IMG/VR virus record: IMGVR_UViG_3300037455_000543
Span: 1-59,135 of that record
Reading direction: 5' to 3' (one strand)
Source: a virus
Lineage: Duplodnaviria > Heunggongvirae > Uroviricota > Caudoviricetes
DNA length: 59,135 nucleotides
This document shows positions 8,644 to 38,454 of the stretch, piece after piece. Position 1 is the stretch's first letter, and each line of letters begins with the position of its first letter. The notes beneath the pieces were generated by a model that worked only from the letters and a program-made list of their open reading frames with translations, was not told the origin of the DNA and ran no database searches. A program made the translations under genes and the position numbers.

Positions 8644-9570
8644 TTATTCATATTTTATTTCATAACTTATATTTTCTATTTCATCTTTATTAAGAACTTT
8701 ACTATATAGCTTTTTAAGCTTTGCCATAAGTGATTTTGCTTTTTCATGAGACATAGGTCTTGTGTCAATGGTTATTGCAATTTTATTATTTCCATCAACA
8801 GAACCCAAAAATTGTGTATCATATTCTTGATCAAAGAATTTTTGACCATAATAACGGATCATTCTATTTTTCCATTCTTCATCACGACCAGGAACTTCAT
8901 TATACTGTATTCTAGTAGCAATAAATGAAGACTTACCTTCTAGGGCATGTTGATAAATTTCATAAAAATCATTATAACCATTCGGTGTAGATAAAAGAAT
9001 TGTCTGTGTATTTATATGTGCTGCTTGTACTGGAAATACGCTAACAACAAAATCATGTAATACTCGAGCATCACAAAATGCCATTTCATCGAAAACCATT
9101 AAATCTACTGTTTTTCCACATATAGGACGTCTACTGTATGCACCTATAAAAATATAAGTTCCATTTTCAAAGTCGATTCTATTATATGTAGCCTTTTTAA
9201 TATTGACTTTCAAGAAATCTGGTAAACGATTATAAATTTCTTGTACTTTGTTAAGTATTTCTTCTGCTATGCTTTCTTTATTGGCCAATATTGCAATGCA
9301 TTTATCGGAATTGAATAATGCATACCATAAAATATAAATTGCCGAGATTGTAGTTTTGCCACATTGTCTTGGTGCAATTACTATATGGTTTTGCCTTTTC
9401 GTTTCTTCACGATTTTGCCAGCTGTCAGCAAACTTACGTAAAAGCGTTCTTTGAAACCTATATGGTCTAAAATTTGTATAGCCTTCTGCTGTAAGTATTT
9501 TTACGTATTTTATAAATTGACTAATATTTTTAGAACACGTTTCAAACGTGTTTTTTTGTTTGATATTCAT
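8644..9570 (-). CDS. Stand-alone terminase large subunit ATPase domain (T4 gp17-like; nuclease domain absent)
   Basis: YRFQ, APRQCGKTT Walker A, VFDEMAF Walker B, LSTPNG, FDQEYDTQFLGS; only 308 aa. Confidence 0.85.
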   Translation of the reverse strand: MNIKQKNTFETCSKNISQFIKYVKILTAEGYTNFRPYRFQRTLLRKFADSWQNREETKRQNHIVIAPRQCGKTTISAIYILWYALFNSDKCIAILANKESIAEEILNKVQEIYNRLPDFLKVNIKKATYNRIDFENGTYIFIGAYSRRPICGKTVDLMVFDEMAFCDARVLHDFVVSVFPVQAAHINTQTILLSTPNGYNDFYEIYQHALEGKSSFIATRIQYNEVPGRDEEWKNRMIRYYGQKFFDQEYDTQFLGSVDGNNKIAITIDTRPMSHEKAKSLMAKLKKLYSKVLNKDEIENISYEIKYE

Positions 9571-10786: not shown

Positions 10787-10873
10787 ATGAAAATGCTTAG
10801 TTTAACAATCCTCCTACTCAGTAGCCTGCTCCTTAGCTGGTTATTGCGTCGTAGTATAGTGGGAACTAAGTAG
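10787..10873 (+). CDS. Attenuator leader peptide 1, MKMLSLTILLLSSLLLSWLLRRSIVGTK
   Basis: SD AAGG; 10 Leu (all six codons), 5 Ser (all AGY), 1 Trp; precedes a terminator and the Trp/Leu/Ser(GCT) tRNAs. Confidence 0.85.
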   Translation: MKMLSLTILLLSSLLLSWLLRRSIVGTK

Positions 10874-10903
10874 TTCGATTTTTTAATCGTAATGAAAGAT
10901 TTA

Positions 10904-10936
10904 AAGGTTCCCATAGGTTGGGGACCTTAATTTTTT
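10904..10936 (+). terminator. Attenuator terminator 1 (antiterminator partner GTGGGAACT 10859-10867)
   Basis: AAGGTTCCCA-TAGGT-TGGGGACCTT plus AATTTTTT; the 5' arm GGTTCCCAT can alternatively pair with 10859-10867. Confidence 0.8.
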
Positions 10937-10942
10937 ATATAT

Positions 10943-11015
10943 AGCTCTATGTGGTAATTGGTTAACCGAGGTGACTCCAAATCTCCTGTTCCCTGTTCGA
11001 ATCGGGGTAGGGCTG
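10943..11015 (+). tRNA. tRNA-Trp(CCA)
   Basis: Loop CTCCAAA, acceptor AGCTCTA/TAGGGCT, G73. Confidence 0.9.
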
Positions 11016-11021
11016 TAAAAA

Positions 11022-11095
11022 CGGTTTGTAGACCAACTGGCAGAGTCGACGCACTCAAAATGCGTGTAGTGTGGGTTCGAATCCCACTAAACCGA
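11022..11095 (+). tRNA. tRNA-Leu(CAA), short variable loop
   Basis: ACGCA-CTCAAAA-TGCGT, GTGGG-TTCGAAT-CCCAC. Confidence 0.9.
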
Positions 11096-11106
11096 TAATA
11101 AATTAA

Positions 11107-11180
11107 CGATTCGTAGACCAACTGGCAGAGTCAATGGCATGAGAGGCCATAAAGTATGAGTTCGAATCTCATCGAATCGA
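11107..11180 (+). tRNA. tRNA-Leu(GAG), short variable loop
   Basis: ATGGC-ATGAGAG-GCCAT, acceptor CGATTCG/CGAATCG. Confidence 0.88.
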
Positions 11181-11187
11181 TATATAA

Positions 11188-11261
11188 CGGTTTGTAGACC
11201 AACGGCAGGAGTCAACACGTTCAGAGCGTGTGCAGTGTGGGTTCGAATCCCACTGAACCGA
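11188..11261 (+). tRNA. tRNA-Leu(CAG), short variable loop
   Basis: ACACG-TTCAGAG-CGTGT. Confidence 0.9.
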
Positions 11262-11267
11262 GAATAA

Positions 11268-11351
11268 CGTCATGTGGAGTAATTGGTAGCCTCGCAAGAA
11301 TGAGAGTCTTGTGGTAGAAATACCGTGAGGGTTCGAGTCCCTCTGTGACGA
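11268..11351 (+). tRNA. tRNA-Leu(GAG), long variable arm
   Basis: CAAGA-ATGAGAG-TCTTG, variable arm GGTA-GAAA-TACC. Confidence 0.9.
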
Positions 11352-11360
11352 TAAAATTTT

Positions 11361-11450
11361 GGAGTTGTGCCTGAGTGGCTTATAGGGACGGTTTGCTAAA
11401 CCGTTGAGGGACGTAAAGTTCCTCCGAAGGTTCGAATCCTTCCAGCTCCG
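11361..11450 (+). tRNA. tRNA-Ser(GCT)
   Basis: ACGGT-TTGCTAA-ACCGT, long variable arm, G73. Confidence 0.93.
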
Positions 11451-11458
11451 CTAAATAA

Positions 11459-11532
11459 CGCCAGGTTACCAAATTGGCAAAGGGGCCTGACTTAGGATCA
11501 GGTATTTGCGGGTTCAAGTCCCGCTCTGGCGA
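11459..11532 (+). tRNA. tRNA-Leu(TAG), short variable loop
   Basis: CCTGA-CTTAGGA-TCAGG. Confidence 0.9.
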
Positions 11533-11535
11533 TAA

Positions 11536-11609
11536 CCGGGTCTATCCCAACAGGCAGAGGAATGGGTCTTAAAAACCTTTCAGTTTCGGTTCGAATCCGA
11601 AGATCCGGA
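11536..11609 (+). tRNA. tRNA-Leu(TAA), short variable loop
   Basis: Loop CTTAAAA, acceptor CCGGGTC/GATCCGG. Confidence 0.88.
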
Positions 11610-12313: not shown

Positions 12314-12342
12314 TTTACAAACCGTAAATAATTTACTATATT
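12314..12342 (+). promoter_or_regulatory. Promoter of structured ncRNA
   Basis: TTTACA-17nt-TATATT; predicted start coincides with the RNA 5' stem. Confidence 0.75.
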
Positions 12343-12347
12343 ATAAA

Positions 12348-12476
12348 ATGACGATAGCTTAGTAAAGGTGCTGAAAATTCGGTTCGAGTCCGATTAAGCC
12401 ATGGAATGGTAAAAGCTGTTCGACTCAGCGTTTGATTTGTGGATTATCTGGCAGTTCGATTCTGCAGTATCGTCAT
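12348..12476 (+). ncRNA. Unknown RNA with three tRNA T-arm-like hairpins
   Basis: Closing stem ATGACGATA/TATCGTCAT; TCGG-TTCGAGT-CCGA, GCTG-TTCGACT-CAGC, GCAG-TTCGATT-CTGC. Confidence 0.7.
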
Positions 12477-12680
12477 AAAAACTTGGCGGCTCCGGAACGC
12501 ATCGTAGGACCTCTCCGAACCTAAGGCTGGTAATTCGTTTCATGTAGGAAGTTCCTCGTGAAATGCTACTTACCAATAAGCTGGACGTGCAAACTGTGCG
12601 TCACGTAGAGAATGGGATCGTATTAGCCCGTGAAGTTTGGTTATTTTCTTTGGACTTTAAAAATAACCGTTTTTTAGGGG

Positions 12681-12709
12681 TTTACAAAACAAAAGTTTTT
12701 TACTATATT
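12681..12709 (+). promoter_or_regulatory. Promoter of tRNA operon C
   Basis: TTTACA-17nt-TATATT. Confidence 0.75.
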
Positions 12710-12773
12710 TTACATCGTAAAAAACGAAAACAAGGAAAAATTTTTTATATATAATAATAAAAGGATAAAAGCA

Positions 12774-12866
12774 ATGAACTTACAGTCTTATACATCATCA
12801 TGCATTTCGATTTGTGGACAGCAGTCCTCAATTTATTGCATGTATTCCATTAAGACTGGTGGGTGA
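12774..12866 (+). CDS. Attenuator leader peptide 2, MNLQSYTSSCISICGQQSSIYCMYSIKTGG
   Basis: SD AAGGA; 7 Ser (all TCN), 3 Tyr, 3 Cys, 4 Ile, 3 Gln (all CAG), 1 internal Met, matching the downstream tRNAs. Confidence 0.85.
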   Translation: MNLQSYTSSCISICGQQSSIYCMYSIKTGG

Positions 12867-12894
12867 CACCTAGTAAATTCGTATAGAATTTTAT

Positions 12895-12929
12895 AAAGTG
12901 TCACTAAGAAAGTGACGCTTTTATTTTTT
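12895..12929 (+). terminator. Attenuator terminator 2 (antiterminator partner GGTGACAC 12862-12869, over the leader stop codon)
   Basis: AAAGTGTCACT-AAGAA-AGTGACGCTTT plus T-run. Confidence 0.82.
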
Positions 12930-13009
12930 ATTATATGACTGAACAGACCCTTGAGACGTATGTTGTATAGGAGCGTTTGTTCGGACAATCGGTGAAAATC
13001 CGATATTAT

Positions 13010-13094
13010 GGCAGTTTCGGATAGCGGCAATTCCTGGAGGCTGTAACCCTCCCGCCCTAACGGGCTTCCGTAGGTTCGAGTCCTACAGCTGTCA
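13010..13094 (+). tRNA. tRNA-Tyr(GTA)
   Basis: GGAGG-CTGTAAC-CCTCC, long variable arm. Confidence 0.92.
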
Positions 13095-13107
13095 CTAACA
13101 AATTAAT

Positions 13108-13190
13108 GGGTATGCTGATGAGTTGGAGATCATCTCCGGTCTGTAAAACCGGCGCCTACGGCTTTGGTGGTTCGAATCCACCCATACCCA
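13108..13190 (+). tRNA. tRNA-Tyr(GTA)
   Basis: CCGGT-CTGTAAA-ACCGG, acceptor GGGTATG/CATACCC. Confidence 0.92.
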
Positions 13191-13195
13191 CTACA

Positions 13196-13276
13196 GGCAG
13201 AGGATGACTGATCATCATTGGATTACTCTTGTCCTACACGGTTTCCTAGGACTAAGGATAGGGCACTCTGCTACCA
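13196..13276 (+). ncRNA. tRNA-like element with acceptor stem and ACCA end but no canonical T-arm
   Basis: GGCAGAG/CTCTGCT then A-CCA; internal hairpins GATGA/TCATC and GTCCTA/TAGGAC. Confidence 0.4.
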
Positions 13277-13407
13277 TTTAGTTCGCAGTGACGCTATGCG
13301 AAAGGGAGGAATCCTAAAATAGCGGTCGTGTTTGTGAGGTAAACAAGGTGGTAGGCCACTAAAGTTTTTCGGTATCTTTGGGTAAAAACCGTAGAAAAGT
13401 TTTTTAT

Positions 13408-13495
13408 GCGCTCTTGGGTCGAGCCTGGCCGAAGACCACAGTCTGCAAAACTGTTGTGAGAAATCACCGCGTTGGTTCAAATCCAACAGAGCGCT
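13408..13495 (+). tRNA. tRNA-Cys(GCA) with long variable arm
   Basis: ACAGT-CTGCAAA-ACTGT, acceptor GCGCTCT/AGAGCGC, U73, variable arm GTGA-GAAA-TCAC. Confidence 0.88.
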
Positions 13496-13502
13496 CTAAA
13501 TA

Positions 13503-13564
13503 GCATAAGAAGTTCCTATACGCCCAGTGGGCATCCGACTTGAAATCAGACTAATTACTTCTCG
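13503..13564 (+). ncRNA. Structured motif shared with the TerD-gene 5' UTR
   Basis: GCATA-AGAAGT-TCCT...CTAATT-ACTTCT-CGC. Confidence 0.55.
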
Positions 13565-13607
13565 CTATTGCGCTTTTAGACTTAGTACGCGTCAAAAAGT
13601 CACTCTT

Positions 13608-13683
13608 CCCGGAGTAGCTCAGTTGGTTCAGTAGCGTTTGAATCATAATCAAAAGGTCGTTGGTTCAAGTCCAACCTCCGGGA
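13608..13683 (+). tRNA. tRNA with CAT anticodon (elongator Met, or Ile2)
   Basis: TTTGA-ATCATAA-TCAAA, acceptor CCCGGAG/CTCCGGG; no initiator features. Confidence 0.88.
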
Positions 13684-13930
13684 CTAAGGATTAGAATTGT
13701 TCCTTAAACAATCAGGATATAGACGAAACAGTCCTTGTTCGTAAAATAATTACTTACAAAGCCTCTCTTGATCCAGTCAATCGATGGATATACTGGTAAG
13801 GAAAATTTACATAGGTGCTAAATTGTTAGACGTATAAGCAGTGAAATTTTAGAGTATGAAAGACTAAGACTGAAGTCGCTATTTAATGTAACACTGGTTA
13901 GAACAAAAACTAAATAAATAGAACTATTAT

Positions 13931-14012
13931 CGGCATATAGTGTAATTGGTTAACACGCCCGTCTGATACGCGGGAAACGATGCTTGTCCTAGTTCGAGTC
14001 TAGGTATGCCGA
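13931..14012 (+). tRNA. tRNA-Ile(GAT), enlarged variable region
   Basis: CCCGT-CTGATAC-GCGGG, acceptor CGGCATA/TATGCCG. Confidence 0.85.
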
Positions 14013-14016
14013 CTAT

Positions 14017-14093
14017 CCACAGGCAATAAGCCGATTGGTGCGGCAGCAAGTCTGATAAACTTGTAAGTGTTTGTTCAAGTCAAACTCTGTGGA
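14017..14093 (+). tRNA. tRNA-Ile(GAT), atypical acceptor-D connector
   Basis: CAAGT-CTGATAA-ACTTG, GTTTG-TTCAAGT-CAAAC. Confidence 0.75.
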
Positions 14094-14104
14094 CTAAAAA
14101 TTAT

Positions 14105-14189
14105 TGAGGATTAACCCTAATGGTAAGGGCCTGGTTTGGAATGCCAGCGTGGGTTTACTCACTTGAAAGTTCGAGTCTTTCATCCTCAG
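14105..14189 (+). tRNA. tRNA-Ser(GGA)
   Basis: CTGGT-TTGGAAT-GCCAG, long variable arm, G73. Confidence 0.9.
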
Positions 14190-14591
14190 CTAATAAATAA
14201 GAAAAGCTATAGGTATCATAACAGACTGTCGGAACCTATACACGTAGCATGCAACGTCGAAGATAAGGTCTAAGATTTATAAGTTTGGGAAAAGGTAAAC
14301 TTATACAGCACGGTTCACTGTGAACTATGAACCATTTTTTAGAATTTGTTTAATTATACTTCTCGATAAAGTATATAATTCATGGTTTGTACAGACTATG
14401 ATTAAATGCGGTGCCCGGCGGTCGGGACTGGCCGAAATCGAAAATGTATCTAGTGATCCTAATAAGTAGTTCTTAAAGGGTGAAACTCTAGTTGCCTTCG
14501 GCTTCGTAAAATGGAGTTCAAACGAAGTCATCCCGGTTTCTGGAATGGTCTACCAAGACAAGTGCCTAACTAGCTCAAGAAACCATTTTAT

Positions 14592-14679
14592 GGCGGTGTG
14601 GCCGAGTGGTTTATGGCTTCCGATTTGAAATCGGACGTGGGTTAACAGCCCACCGTGGGTTCGAATCCTACCACCGCCT
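14592..14679 (+). tRNA. tRNA-Ser(TGA)
   Basis: TCCGA-TTTGAAA-TCGGA, long variable arm. Confidence 0.92.
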
Positions 14680-14688
14680 CGAATTTTT

Positions 14689-14772
14689 GGAAGTGTCCCG
14701 CAACTGGTGGCGGAGCTGCTTCGAACGCAGTGAGTCAGAGATGACTTGGAGGTTCGAATCCTTTCACTTCCG
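14689..14772 (+). tRNA. tRNA-Ser(CGA)
   Basis: GCTGC-TTCGAAC-GCAGT, long variable arm, G73. Confidence 0.9.
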
Positions 14773-14782
14773 TTGTTTTTAT

Positions 14783-14853
14783 TGCCGGTTGGTGTAATGG
14801 CAGCACAGGGGTCTCTGAAGCCCTTAGCATTCGATCGTAACGAGTACCGGCAA
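14783..14853 (+). tRNA. tRNA-Gln(CTG), non-canonical T-loop
   Basis: GGGGT-CTCTGAA-GCCCT, U1-A72, T-loop ATCGTAA. Confidence 0.85.
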
Positions 14854-15040
14854 CTATGCTATATGAGTAGTTTAAAATGGCAACTCACCATTTTAGATGA
14901 AAGAGATATAGACCGTAAAGGACAATGCGTTATCAACCCCGCTGGCACGGCGGTCAGGTGGAGACCGGTGTATTTTTAAGATTTTCAAATAAAAATATCG
15001 TTCATAATCTTGAACGATATTTTTTTATATTTGTATTACT

Positions 15041-31685: not shown

Positions 31686-32831
31686 TTATTCTTGTTTTTT
31701 AACACACACTGTAAATCCGATAAATCCTACCAGATATAGAAGCCCTAGAACTAAGTATAGGCTATTGTCTGTAAATACGTTTGCTAATGTAGGGCCTAAG
31801 ATACCAGCGATTCCCCATCCAGAAAGAGTCATTGCATGGATTGTAGAAACGGATGACTGACCGAAATATTTGGACAATAAGCTCGGCAATACTGAGAAGT
31901 TTCCGCCATAAGAGAATTCACAAAGCATGATGCCAATGAGCGCAAGATATGGATTCTGTGTAAAGCAAAGGAATGCTGCAATAATACCTAACGAACATAC
32001 CCAATGATATGCCGCTTTTCTACCAATCTTGTCAGAAGCAGTAGACATTCCAAAACGACCAAGAATATTAAATATGGCAGTAGTCGACATCAATATTGCA
32101 ATTTCTTTGAAGCCAAGATTTAACAATAATCCTTTTTCTTGTGAAATCAATGCAAGACCGCAAGAAATATTAATACAGAACATCAACCATACAGAAATAT
32201 ATTTCTTACTCAAAAATATAGTGCTAACCAGGTCCTTATAAGGTATCGCAGTATAGATCGTGCTTATATAAATCGGATTTGGTTTATATAGCCATGAACA
32301 TAATGACATTATTGCTAAGAATATTCCAGACAGGATTAGGAACATATAAGGCAATGAGAAATTCGCCAACAGGTATTCAATAACCGGCGCAAATACGAAC
32401 TTGCCGAGTCCGAAACCAGTAATTGCCAAACCACTAGCTAGTCCCTTATGGTCTTCGAAATTACTTAGTAGTTGTTTTATCGGCGACGTATAGCCAATAC
32501 CTGTTCCAGTTCCCATAAATGCACATGCAATGTAATATAACGGCAGCAATACGAAGTTAGTTGCCAGGAACATTAAGAACATGCCTACTGAGAAAAGAAT
32601 AGTGGAAACGATAGCCATTCTTTTCGGGTTTAATTCGACCATTCTACCGAATGTTGCAGCACCCATTCCAAGGAAGAAAATAATGAGCATGAAGCCAATA
32701 TCGCCCTGGAATTTAGTAATGTCGAATAATTGTTGGATATTTACCGAATATTGTGAGAAATTATAAACTGTTCCCAGAGACATCGGTAAAAGAACTCCAG
32801 GAATCAGTATTTGAGTGAATCTGTTTGTCAT
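31686..32831 (-). CDS. MFS transporter, oxalate/formate antiporter (OFA)-like
   Basis: About 12 TM; GIGYTSPI..F..HKGLASGLAITGFGLG, FNILGRF..SDKIGRK, YGGNFSVLP. Confidence 0.88.
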   Translation of the reverse strand: MTNRFTQILIPGVLLPMSLGTVYNFSQYSVNIQQLFDITKFQGDIGFMLIIFFLGMGAATFGRMVELNPKRMAIVSTILFSVGMFLMFLATNFVLLPLYYIACAFMGTGTGIGYTSPIKQLLSNFEDHKGLASGLAITGFGLGKFVFAPVIEYLLANFSLPYMFLILSGIFLAIMSLCSWLYKPNPIYISTIYTAIPYKDLVSTIFLSKKYISVWLMFCINISCGLALISQEKGLLLNLGFKEIAILMSTTAIFNILGRFGMSTASDKIGRKAAYHWVCSLGIIAAFLCFTQNPYLALIGIMLCEFSYGGNFSVLPSLLSKYFGQSSVSTIHAMTLSGWGIAGILGPTLANVFTDNSLYLVLGLLYLVGFIGFTVCVKKQE

Positions 32832-36564: not shown

Positions 36565-36669
36565 ATCATGAACATTGCGCAGACAATATAATTAAATTTT
36601 TAAAAAGGGGTTTACAATCCCTTTTTATTTGTTATATTGTATAATAGTTTAACTTTAAGGAGAAACACA

Positions 36670-38454
36670 ATGACAAAAATCAAATCATTAATTATGTGCT
36701 TGCTCATGTGTATTTCTATGGCCTTCGCTGGACCGGGTTTAGCCGATGGTGCAGCAAAGTTCGTAGGTAATATTACTACACAAGGACAGGTTCGTTCTGA
36801 CTTCACTACATTGTGGAATCAGATTACGGCAGAAAACGAATGTAAGTGGGCATCTATCGAAGGTACTCGTGGTAATTATAACTGGCGAGGATGTGATGCT
36901 GCTTATAACTGGGCAAAGAACAATGGCGGACATTTTAAATTCCATGCGCTCGTTTGGGGTTCACAATATCCGAATTGGTTGAATGGCCTTTCTGTAGATG
37001 AAACCAAGAAAGCAATTACTGCTTGGTTTGACGCTGTAAAAAATCATTATCCTGACCTTGAAATGATTGACGTGGTTAACGAAGCTATTAAGTCTGGTGG
37101 TAGTTATCACTCTGGCTATGGTAAGAACAACAACATCATTGGTGCTCTCGGTGGCGACAATGGTAATTATGAATTCGTTGTTACCGCATTTAAGATGGCA
37201 AGAGAACGTTGGCCGGATGCTATTTTGATTTATAATGACTATAATACTGTTCAGTGGCAGAAGAATGAAGGCATTGATTTGATTAACAAAATCAAGAAGG
37301 CTGGTGCTCCTGTAGACGCATATGGCTTGCAGGCGCATGACATGCAGGTTTCCGGTGGTCAGCAAGGTGGTCAAGGCGGTGGCGGTTCTTGTTTGAACAT
37401 TAATACATTAAAGTCTGCTATTGAAGAAATTTGGAATAAGACACAAATGCCAATGTTCATCTCAGAATATGATATTGCTACTGAAGATGATAATGACCAG
37501 AAGAACTGCTATTCACAACAGATTTCCTACTTTATGGAAAATGAACACATTGCTGGTATCACATTGTGGGGTTACATTTATGGCGCTACCTGGACTACAA
37601 ATGGTAACTCTGGTATCATCAAGAATGGACAAGATCGTCCAGCTATGACATGGCTCAAGCAGTATCTTGCAAGTAATAAGGGTGTGAACTCGACTGGATT
37701 GCCAACAGGTGATGGCGTAACCATTGTTGAACCTGAACCGCAGAAGCCGTTTAAGGGTGAAGCATTTAATCTTGCATTCCCGATTGAAGCTGAAGATTTC
37801 GATATTCCTGGTAAGGGAGCAGGTAATAATTCCTATTCCGTTAGCGGTGATTGCGATGATACATGGAACACAGAATACCGTAAGGGAACAACTGTAAAGA
37901 TTGGCGAAAAGAATGGTGGATTGGTTCTTGGTTGTAACCCAACAGGTAACTACTTCCAGTATACTGTCAAGGTTCCTGAAGCAGGCAATTACTATGTATA
38001 TGCAACAGTAGCAGCAGATGGTGAAGGTGCTATTCTGTTCAAGGTTGGCGACAAGGCAGTAACTGATACATTAAAGTTCACAGGCGACTCTTGGTCTAAG
38101 TTTGACAAGATTAAGGGACAGGCAACATTCACCACTGCTGGTGAACAGATTTTGACATTGGAAATTGCTAAGGGCTATATTGATGTTGATAAATTTGAGT
38201 TTATGGTAACTGATTGTGCTCCTGGTGATGCATCCTGTGGCGGACCGTCATTTAATTGTGAAGATTATCCAGAGGATCCGGCATGTAGGACTGTCGTATT
38301 TGCACCTGTTCAAGAACAACAGAAATTACAGCATTACAAGATTTTCGACCTTAATGGTAACTATCTTGGTGTAATTAGTGGATATAATAAGGTTGATGCG
38401 GCAAATGTTGTAACAAGTAAACTCCATACGAGAGTAATTCTTATCAACAAGTAA
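36670..38454 (+). CDS. Secreted GH10 endo-1,4-beta-xylanase with CBM6 and Fibrobacter-type C-terminal tail
   Basis: Signal peptide; ITAENECKW, FHALVWGSQ, DVVNE (acid/base), YNDYN, GLQAH, ISEYD (nucleophile); IEAEDFD CBM6; YKIFDLNG tail. Confidence 0.9.
   Translation: MTKIKSLIMCLLMCISMAFAGPGLADGAAKFVGNITTQGQVRSDFTTLWNQITAENECKWASIEGTRGNYNWRGCDAAYNWAKNNGGHFKFHALVWGSQYPNWLNGLSVDETKKAITAWFDAVKNHYPDLEMIDVVNEAIKSGGSYHSGYGKNNNIIGALGGDNGNYEFVVTAFKMARERWPDAILIYNDYNTVQWQKNEGIDLINKIKKAGAPVDAYGLQAHDMQVSGGQQGGQGGGGSCLNINTLKSAIEEIWNKTQMPMFISEYDIATEDDNDQKNCYSQQISYFMENEHIAGITLWGYIYGATWTTNGNSGIIKNGQDRPAMTWLKQYLASNKGVNSTGLPTGDGVTIVEPEPQKPFKGEAFNLAFPIEAEDFDIPGKGAGNNSYSVSGDCDDTWNTEYRKGTTVKIGEKNGGLVLGCNPTGNYFQYTVKVPEAGNYYVYATVAADGEGAILFKVGDKAVTDTLKFTGDSWSKFDKIKGQATFTTAGEQILTLEIAKGYIDVDKFEFMVTDCAPGDASCGGPSFNCEDYPEDPACRTVVFAPVQEQQKLQHYKIFDLNGNYLGVISGYNKVDAANVVTSKLHTRVILINK

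Follow-up and report, generated by a model that had tools for sequence, protein, structure and literature searches.

A putative six-amino-acid leader-peptide attenuator upstream of a ten-tRNA operon in a jumbo phage genome

Introduction

Whether phage tRNAs serve codon compensation or the replacement of destroyed host tRNAs is a decades-old question, and a ten-tRNA operon in the rumen jumbo phage genome IMGVR_UViG_3300037455_000543 raises it in a specific form. The operon is preceded by a short open reading frame (ORF), rich in codons for Tyr, Cys, Met, Ile, Ser, and Gln, and by RNA hairpins that might switch its transcription; are these tRNAs made only when their codons are read slowly? The record is complete (424,163 bases, 35% GC, direct terminal repeats), and the window analyzed here is its start, 59,135 nucleotides (nt) in length. 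The genome encodes a T4-like major capsid protein, a CCA-adding enzyme, and 50 tRNA calls plus a transfer-messenger RNA, and the phage was found in gut samples of cattle, sheep, and goat from 15 studies. An original prediction, made from the letters of the window alone, had described the locus as an attenuator that senses six amino acids. With a probability of roughly 85%, the sequence comparisons and folding models reported here point to a ribosome-mediated transcription attenuator that would tie production of ten phage tRNAs to how fast their codons are decoded.

Results

Leader ORF and codon match

Read along the plus strand, the locus comprises a promoter-like site, a ribosome-binding site, the leader, a terminator with a T run, ten tRNA genes ending at 14854, and closing terminators:

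12681-12709, +: promoter-like site, sigma70-type, TTTACA-17-TATATT, conserved before homologous leaders
12748-12756, +: TATATAATA box common to five leaders, a variant of the genome's T4-like late motif TATAAATA
12761-12766, +: Shine-Dalgarno-like sequence AAAGGA, kept in homologues
12774-12866, +: leader ORF of 30 codons, with a sensing block (codons 4-26) and a non-cognate tail (codons 27-30)
13010-13095, +: tRNA-Tyr(GTA)
13108-13191, +: tRNA-Tyr(GTA)
13408-13496, +: tRNA-Cys(GCA), long variable arm
13608-13684, +: tRNA with CAT anticodon, elongator-Met type (C1-G72, C3-G70, G4-C69, U29-A41)
13931-14013, +: tRNA-Ile(GAT), long variable arm
14017-14093, +: second tRNA-Ile(GAT), full cloverleaf, atypical 6-nt linker before the D arm
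14105-14190, +: tRNA-Ser(GGA)
14592-14680, +: tRNA-Ser(TGA)
14688-14773, +: tRNA-Ser(CGA)
14783-14854, +: tRNA-Gln(CTG)
14951-15034, +: two terminator-like hairpins closing the operon

As in known attenuators, a short, apparently translatable ORF thus lies between a promoter-like site and the genes that it would regulate, and no strong promoter for the tRNAs alone was found between 12709 and the operon end. Sites of the TTTACA-17-TATATT class occur at 116 places in the genome. The TATATAATA box is possibly a second, late-like promoter. Across the genome (G000), 80 of 125 TATAAATA sites fall within 70 nt of an ORF start, and one site is directly upstream of a leader at genome position 325929; a weak sigma-factor domain match was also seen at 242860 (G000). 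The second tRNA-Ile(GAT) was called by ARAGORN only at a lowered threshold and scored 29.2 bits with Rfam.

The sensing block contains seven Ser TCN, four Ile ATT, three Tyr, three Cys, and three Gln CAG codons (including CAG CAG at codons 16-17) and one Met codon, so that the six amino acids originally predicted are all represented, each with a tRNA downstream. Under strict wobble rules, and with the expectation taken from the genome's own genes, 21 of 29 leader codons are read by the operon's tRNAs as compared to 20% expected (p=1.5e-9); among 5,267 short ATG ORFs on both strands the leader ranks first, with the next more than three orders of magnitude behind, and the match is thus not attributable to chance. 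The regulatory codons are therefore cognate to the operon product, as in classical attenuators, except that the product is the cognate tRNA and not the amino acid. Six further tRNA blocks share this design, such that seven of seven tRNA operons have such leaders, and, of the 5,040 possible assignments of seven leaders to seven operons, the one that joins every leader to its own operon ranks first. One sister unit lies in the window:

10787-11609, +: Leu/Ser(AGY)/Trp leader, terminator, and eight tRNAs

The match extends to synonymous codons, with Ser TCN in seven of seven cases, Gln CAG in three of three, and Ile ATT in four of four (joint chance approximately 0.002). While Ser codons are TCN here, the neighbouring leader over Ser(GCT) has five AGY codons; similarly, Gln is encoded by CAG here versus CAA where Gln(TTG) sits, and Ile by ATT here versus ATA where Ile(TAT) sits. 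The leader at genome position 325929 carries ATA, AGA, AAA, and CAA codons over tRNAs with TAT/CAT, TCT, TTT, and TTG anticodons. Ser, Gln, Lys, Ile, and Arg are each divided between operons by codon, and the leaders track this division. These data favour sensing of individual codons or isoacceptors over sensing of amino acids; the original proposal of amino-acid sensing hence stands with regard to the match between leader and tRNAs and is refined with regard to what is sensed.

Identity of the CAT tRNA

From the one internal ATG and the absence of ATA in the leader, both of which we also find, the CAT tRNA had been predicted to be elongator tRNA-Met and not tRNA-Ile2. tRNA-Ile2, which reads through a lysidine-modified CAU anticodon, has purine 3 and pyrimidine 70, frequently with C4-G69 and C5-G68, while initiator tRNA-fMet has A11-U24 and G12-C23 (PMC1635315). 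The CAT tRNA at 13608 has C3-G70, G4-C69, and G5-C68, which does not fit tRNA-Ile2. In initiator tRNA-fMet, position pair 1:72 is unpaired; here C1-G72 is paired and positions 11/12 are C/U. C3-G70 without initiator marks is what is expected of an elongator tRNA-Met, and several orthologues have the loop UU-CAU-AC. The CAT tRNA at genome position 325445, by comparison, has A3-U70 and C4-G69, fits tRNA-Ile2, and lies behind an ATA-rich leader, and in two other lineages Tyr-operon leaders with three internal ATG codons precede two CAT tRNAs. The prediction of elongator tRNA-Met thus appears sound, and leader codons could help to decide between Met and Ile2 for ambiguous tRNAs. Searches of the phage for TilS and for class Ia synthetase domains were negative, and Met/Ile2 modification and charging depend on host enzymes.

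Relatives as a natural experiment

Pattern scans recovered 14 distinct homologues of the leader-terminator region, in which indels within the leader ORF are 3 nt at four of four sites, as compared to 1-2 nt outside the ORF. tRNA genes shift between operons in this phage group and leader codons shift along with them. Gln(CTG), located in the Tyr operon here, is found in the Leu operon of G002, whose leader has two CAG codons, and in the Arg/Lys/Gln operon of G001 and L048, where the leader has two CAG codons and the Tyr leaders lack the pair; relocation of Cys follows the same behaviour. Where Ile(GAT) is in the Ala/Glu/Phe operon (G002, L008/L019), that leader has gained ATT/ATC and the Tyr leader has lost them. 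Among 26 distinct leaders with complete operons, presence of Gln(CTG) agreed with presence of at least two CAG codons in 26 of 26 (two-by-two counts 8/0/0/18), and Cys agreed with at least two TGY codons in 26 of 26 (10/0/0/16), although these rows are related and represent approximately four independent events, so that Fisher p-values overstate the association. For Ile(GAT) and at least three ATY codons there was one real exception (L016). Pattern matches in L028, L044, L046, L062, and L064 were rejected as chance, as was one Ile match in L008, an AT-rich false positive. In G005, a relative with one large tRNA array, no leader was detected by the leader finder used, which is a weak negative.

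RNA switch and folding

Four RNA structures surround the leader stop codon:

12855-12874 (core 12858-12870), +: hairpin 1:2, -7.6 kcal/mol, stop codon in the loop
12862-12905, +: antiterminator 2:3, a long interrupted hairpin, -16.3 kcal/mol, base helix 12862-12869/12898-12905
12875-12891, +: inner stem capping the antiterminator, with varying sequence and pairing kept in every homologue
12895-12930 (stem 12895-12921), +: intrinsic terminator 3:4 and U tract, -13.6 kcal/mol

Across all homologues hairpin 1:2 has predicted energies of -4.8 to -7.6 kcal/mol, with one G-C to A-U double change; the antiterminator ranges from -14 to -23 kcal/mol, and 99% of cells of terminator 3:4 are paired in the 14 homologues. 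A predicted intrinsic terminator thus precedes the first gene that would be regulated. The three pairings occur at the places originally described; as to their mutual exclusivity, 2:3 excludes both others, whereas 1:2 and 3:4 are compatible with each other. In addition, 2:3 is the base of one long hairpin whose inner stem had been missed.

When the nascent chain was folded with the RNA under a ribosome at each codon covered (9 nt), the probability of 2:3 was approximately 1 for any A site up to Ile26, the last cognate codon, while strand 4 was absent; it then dropped to 0.8 at codon 27, 0.4 at codon 28, and 0 from codon 29 to the stop. A 12-nt cover moves the switch point by one codon, and the profile recurs in every homologue. 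In five of the six sister leaders, whose sequences are unrelated, the antiterminator is likewise lost no more than about three codons from where the cognate block ends. In only 3 of 100 shuffles was the terminator arm paired equally well. In silico, antiterminator and terminator would therefore exclude each other, and the position of the ribosome would decide between them, with a kinetic caveat. Once strand 4 is included at equilibrium, the terminator is favoured for all tested stalls other than Ile26, so that read-through from earlier stalls must be kinetic, by trapping.

Hairpin 1:2 is predicted to be out-competed by 2:3 on the nascent chain and is positioned 3' of most sensing codons, which would go unsensed if the pause were strictly released by the ribosome, the model for trp and his (PMC1183508). 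It is more likely to be an RNA polymerase pause hairpin than a true blocker, and a timed pause that polymerase leaves if the ribosome lags would suit it better.

Discussion

Proposed mechanism and its natural signal

We propose that RNA polymerase, in the course of leader transcription, probably pauses at hairpin 1:2. With the six tRNA types plentiful, the ribosome would pass quickly through codons 4-26 into the tail and cover 12862-12869, such that 3:4 would form and transcription would end near 12925. With any cognate tRNA scarce, uncharged, or cut, the ribosome would be late, polymerase would move ahead, and the long 2:3 hairpin would form before strand 4 exists, allowing transcription of the tRNA operon. 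The new tRNAs would then speed leader translation, in a negative feedback.

The natural signal is likely a shortage of working tRNA isoacceptors in infection. The output is tRNA and is split by isoacceptor, which makes tRNA shortage the more sensible selective signal; extra tRNA cures an isoacceptor shortage and not a lack of amino acids. Host amino-acid starvation acting on the same switch, as framed in the original prediction, has perhaps one chance in a few of being the signal. Starvation slows the same codons, classical attenuators respond in this way and also show synonymous bias (PMC1183508), and the switch cannot distinguish an uncharged tRNA from a destroyed or missing one. By contrast, the tRNA output would supply no amino acid, and the division of Ser, Gln, Lys, Ile, and Arg between operons is by codon, with leaders that follow it. 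Phage tRNAs are known to rescue infection from tRNA-cutting defences (PMC11555353, PMC10264068). The seven putative codon-sensing units might further constitute an on-demand counter-defence in which, upon destruction of an isoacceptor by a host nuclease, only the unit with the replacement switches on; we put forward this extension tentatively, at somewhat less than even odds. If true, the leader codons would be a readable record of the host tRNAs that run short in infection.

Points that weigh against the attenuator, and other explanations

Several observations weigh against a codon-sensing attenuator. With regard to folding, the estimated barriers are close (8.9 kcal/mol for 1:2 to 2:3 and 9.8 kcal/mol for 2:3 to the terminator), and the equilibrium preference for the terminator noted above counts on the same side; the core 2:3 pairs are invariant and hence give no covariation signal, and in 9 of 14 homologues an A-C mismatch replaces one A-U pair of 2:3. 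For leaders 4 and 5 the shuffles discriminate poorly (30 and 23 of 100), and for leader 7 the folding model gives no clean switch. Among relatives, L016 carries Ile codons without an Ile tRNA, the relocations are few in independent terms, and one lineage, represented by three records (L011, L012, and L015), has a stop at leader codon 9 (TCA to TAA). Contigs from RNA runs span the region and one crosses the terminator (12768-12948); such contigs cannot show ends, levels, or termination, and they were not used as support. Finally, the model presumes transcription-translation coupling in the host. An NAD-synthetase-like gene is nearest to those of rumen Treponema chromosomes (44-47%), higher-scoring matches appearing to be mis-binned phage contigs, and a DNA search of 201 Treponema genomes gave short matches only, mostly to tRNA (73-88% identity); a rumen Treponema host is thus a weak guess from one gene.

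The codon-9 nonsense allele was located at L011:4197-4292 (also G001, G004, and L015), where TCA to TAA is the sole substitution in that leader-terminator as compared to L041/L035. The attenuator model predicts a constitutively read operon for this allele. A TAATG overlap could restart translation in another frame, ending just before the antiterminator strand. Stop-codon recoding was considered and rejected, as TAA is the main stop of this lineage and no full suppressor tRNA was found in it.

The leader might instead be a general timer of translation speed, or a terminator that leaks constitutively and fixes tRNA dosage, with a codon match that has no specific sensing role; this is improbable. 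Without translation, the RNA is predicted to adopt the antiterminator fold, so that any translation block would switch the operon on; persistence of the nonsense allele in three records and the presence in relatives of some tRNA blocks without a leader also agree with such a timer. It leaves unexplained, however, the codon match at p of approximately 1e-9 and the codons that move with a tRNA between operons.

Direct RNA-RNA sensing, in which tRNAs or anticodon-stem-loop modules pair with leader codons in a T-box-like, ribosome-free manner, is less probable still. The operon contains a candidate partner:

13503-13565, +: conserved non-tRNA RNA module with a lone Ser(UGA)-type anticodon stem-loop

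In the lineage with TCA to TAA at codon 9, the module loop has changed from UGA to UUA; this coincidence is a single event. Translation is indicated by the ribosome-binding site, the single frame, and the 3-nt indels; the position of the switch point agrees with the footprint of a ribosome, and no T-box (stem I with specifier loop, antiterminator motif) was matched in the genome, with the control positive. As observations on the module itself, it follows the pattern GC-AHA-N5-UUCCUA, cargo, UA-N5'-C-GC, with at least eight copies in the genome and the loop CU-UGA-AA at 13503-13565; in the TAA lineage (L011:4951-5006, as compared to L041, L035, and L045) the loop is CU-UUA-AA and a stem mismatch is repaired, one event that was seen post hoc. 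Its identity as a Y RNA was rejected, as no TROVE/Ro60 gene was found in the phage.

A function of the 30-residue peptide as a small protein, with the hairpin merely as its terminator, is very improbable, since, despite an ORF with a ribosome-binding site and a terminator and a peptide conserved among close relatives, other relatives have wholly different peptides before the same Tyr tRNAs, the composition is dictated by the downstream anticodons, and no strong promoter lies between 12709 and the operon end to serve the tRNAs separately. The codon-sensing attenuator, on which the 5,040 assignments, the whole-codon indels, the switch at the end of the cognate block, and the codons following moved tRNAs converge, remains the best supported reading of these sequences and models.

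Relation to known systems

By all features that can be assessed in sequence, the phage switch would belong with the trp/his/ilv attenuators, with multivalent ilvGMEDA as its closest counterpart. Like ilvGMEDA, ilvBN, thr, trp, his, leu, and pheA (PMC6123439, PMC1183508), it has a short leader ORF rich in regulatory codons; the E. coli ilvGMEDA leader has 15 branched-chain residues among 32 amino acids (PMC6123439). As in the multivalent ilvGMEDA, ilvBN, and thr attenuators, one leader would sense several amino acids, and it shares with the trp/his/ilv type a mutually exclusive antiterminator and intrinsic terminator, with hairpin 1:2 as a candidate for the pause-type hairpin. It differs in that it would control tRNA genes rather than biosynthetic enzymes, sits in a phage, covers six amino acids with 21 isoacceptor-matched regulatory codons, has its stop codon within the antiterminator strand, and recurs over seven operons, among which nearly the entire tRNA set is divided.

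In the E. coli pheM-pheST attenuator, a leader peptide likewise governs part of the translation apparatus and gives feedback on the supply of charged tRNA; unlike the phage switch, it involves one amino acid, a synthetase target, and a chromosomal location. A T-box-controlled tRNA operon possibly exists in Bacillus, for which the searched literature gave no confirmation. T-box riboswitches (Rfam RF00230) likewise read tRNA status via a codon and choose between terminator and antiterminator, but are ribosome-free, with one specifier codon and a conserved T-box sequence.

Anti-defence phage tRNA arrays, in which a T5-like tRNA-Tyr counters retron-Eco7 and tRNA-Lys counters PrrC (PMC11555353; PMC10264068), resemble this phage in supplying their own tRNAs and provide a plausible selective context; a strong promoter or nuclease-resistant tRNAs are described for them instead, and the words attenuation and leader are absent from both papers. 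No paper on leader-peptide control of tRNA genes, in phages or otherwise, was found in the searched literature, which leaves out most subscription journals; within it, a tRNA-gene target, a phage setting, and a genome-wide partition by codon were not found for such attenuators. This locus would thus extend leader-peptide attenuation to tRNA genes and to phages, as a compact six-input sensor of translation state. tRNA genes that are on only at slow codon reading would argue for demand-driven replacement, and the question could be tested codon by codon with a 250-base reporter.

Additional observations

Among the best matches in cultured phages, the capsid is at most approximately 33% identical, and these phages gave tRNA-Tyr matches only, with no leader match. 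Contigs of 170-270 kb in Methanobrevibacter and Bacilli metagenome-assembled genomes (L084, L085, and L098) carry copies of a phage gene with 60-80% identity and are probably related phages that were binned with them.

With regard to tRNA structure, the Cys tRNA and one Ile tRNA of the operon carry long variable arms, while the variable arm is short (type I) in five of six tRNA-Leu genes at 11022-11609; a search of the phage for a LeuRS-type domain was negative. In L071:3240-3420, L037, L040, and L073, tRNA-Ile(GAT)-like genes are rearranged, such that the anticodon arm is preceded by no D arm and followed by a sequence resembling a D loop; ARAGORN mis-calls these genes Arg or unknown. At L069:11174 and L013:8169, the anticodon loop of the tRNA occupying the Arg(ACG) position is altered, and the call is Gln(TTG).

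Structured spacers without an Rfam family lie within the operon at 12932-13008 (conserved in homologues), 13194-13405, and 14192-14590. Upstream, 12314-12625 has its own promoter-like site before two structured non-coding stretches, 12350-12473 and 12482-12625, neither with an Rfam match and both covered by RNA-library contigs; the first is closed by a long stem with T-loop-like motifs. Elsewhere in the window are a GH10 glycoside hydrolase gene (36637-38454), an MFS transporter gene (31686-32831), and a terminase-ATPase-like gene (8644-9570).

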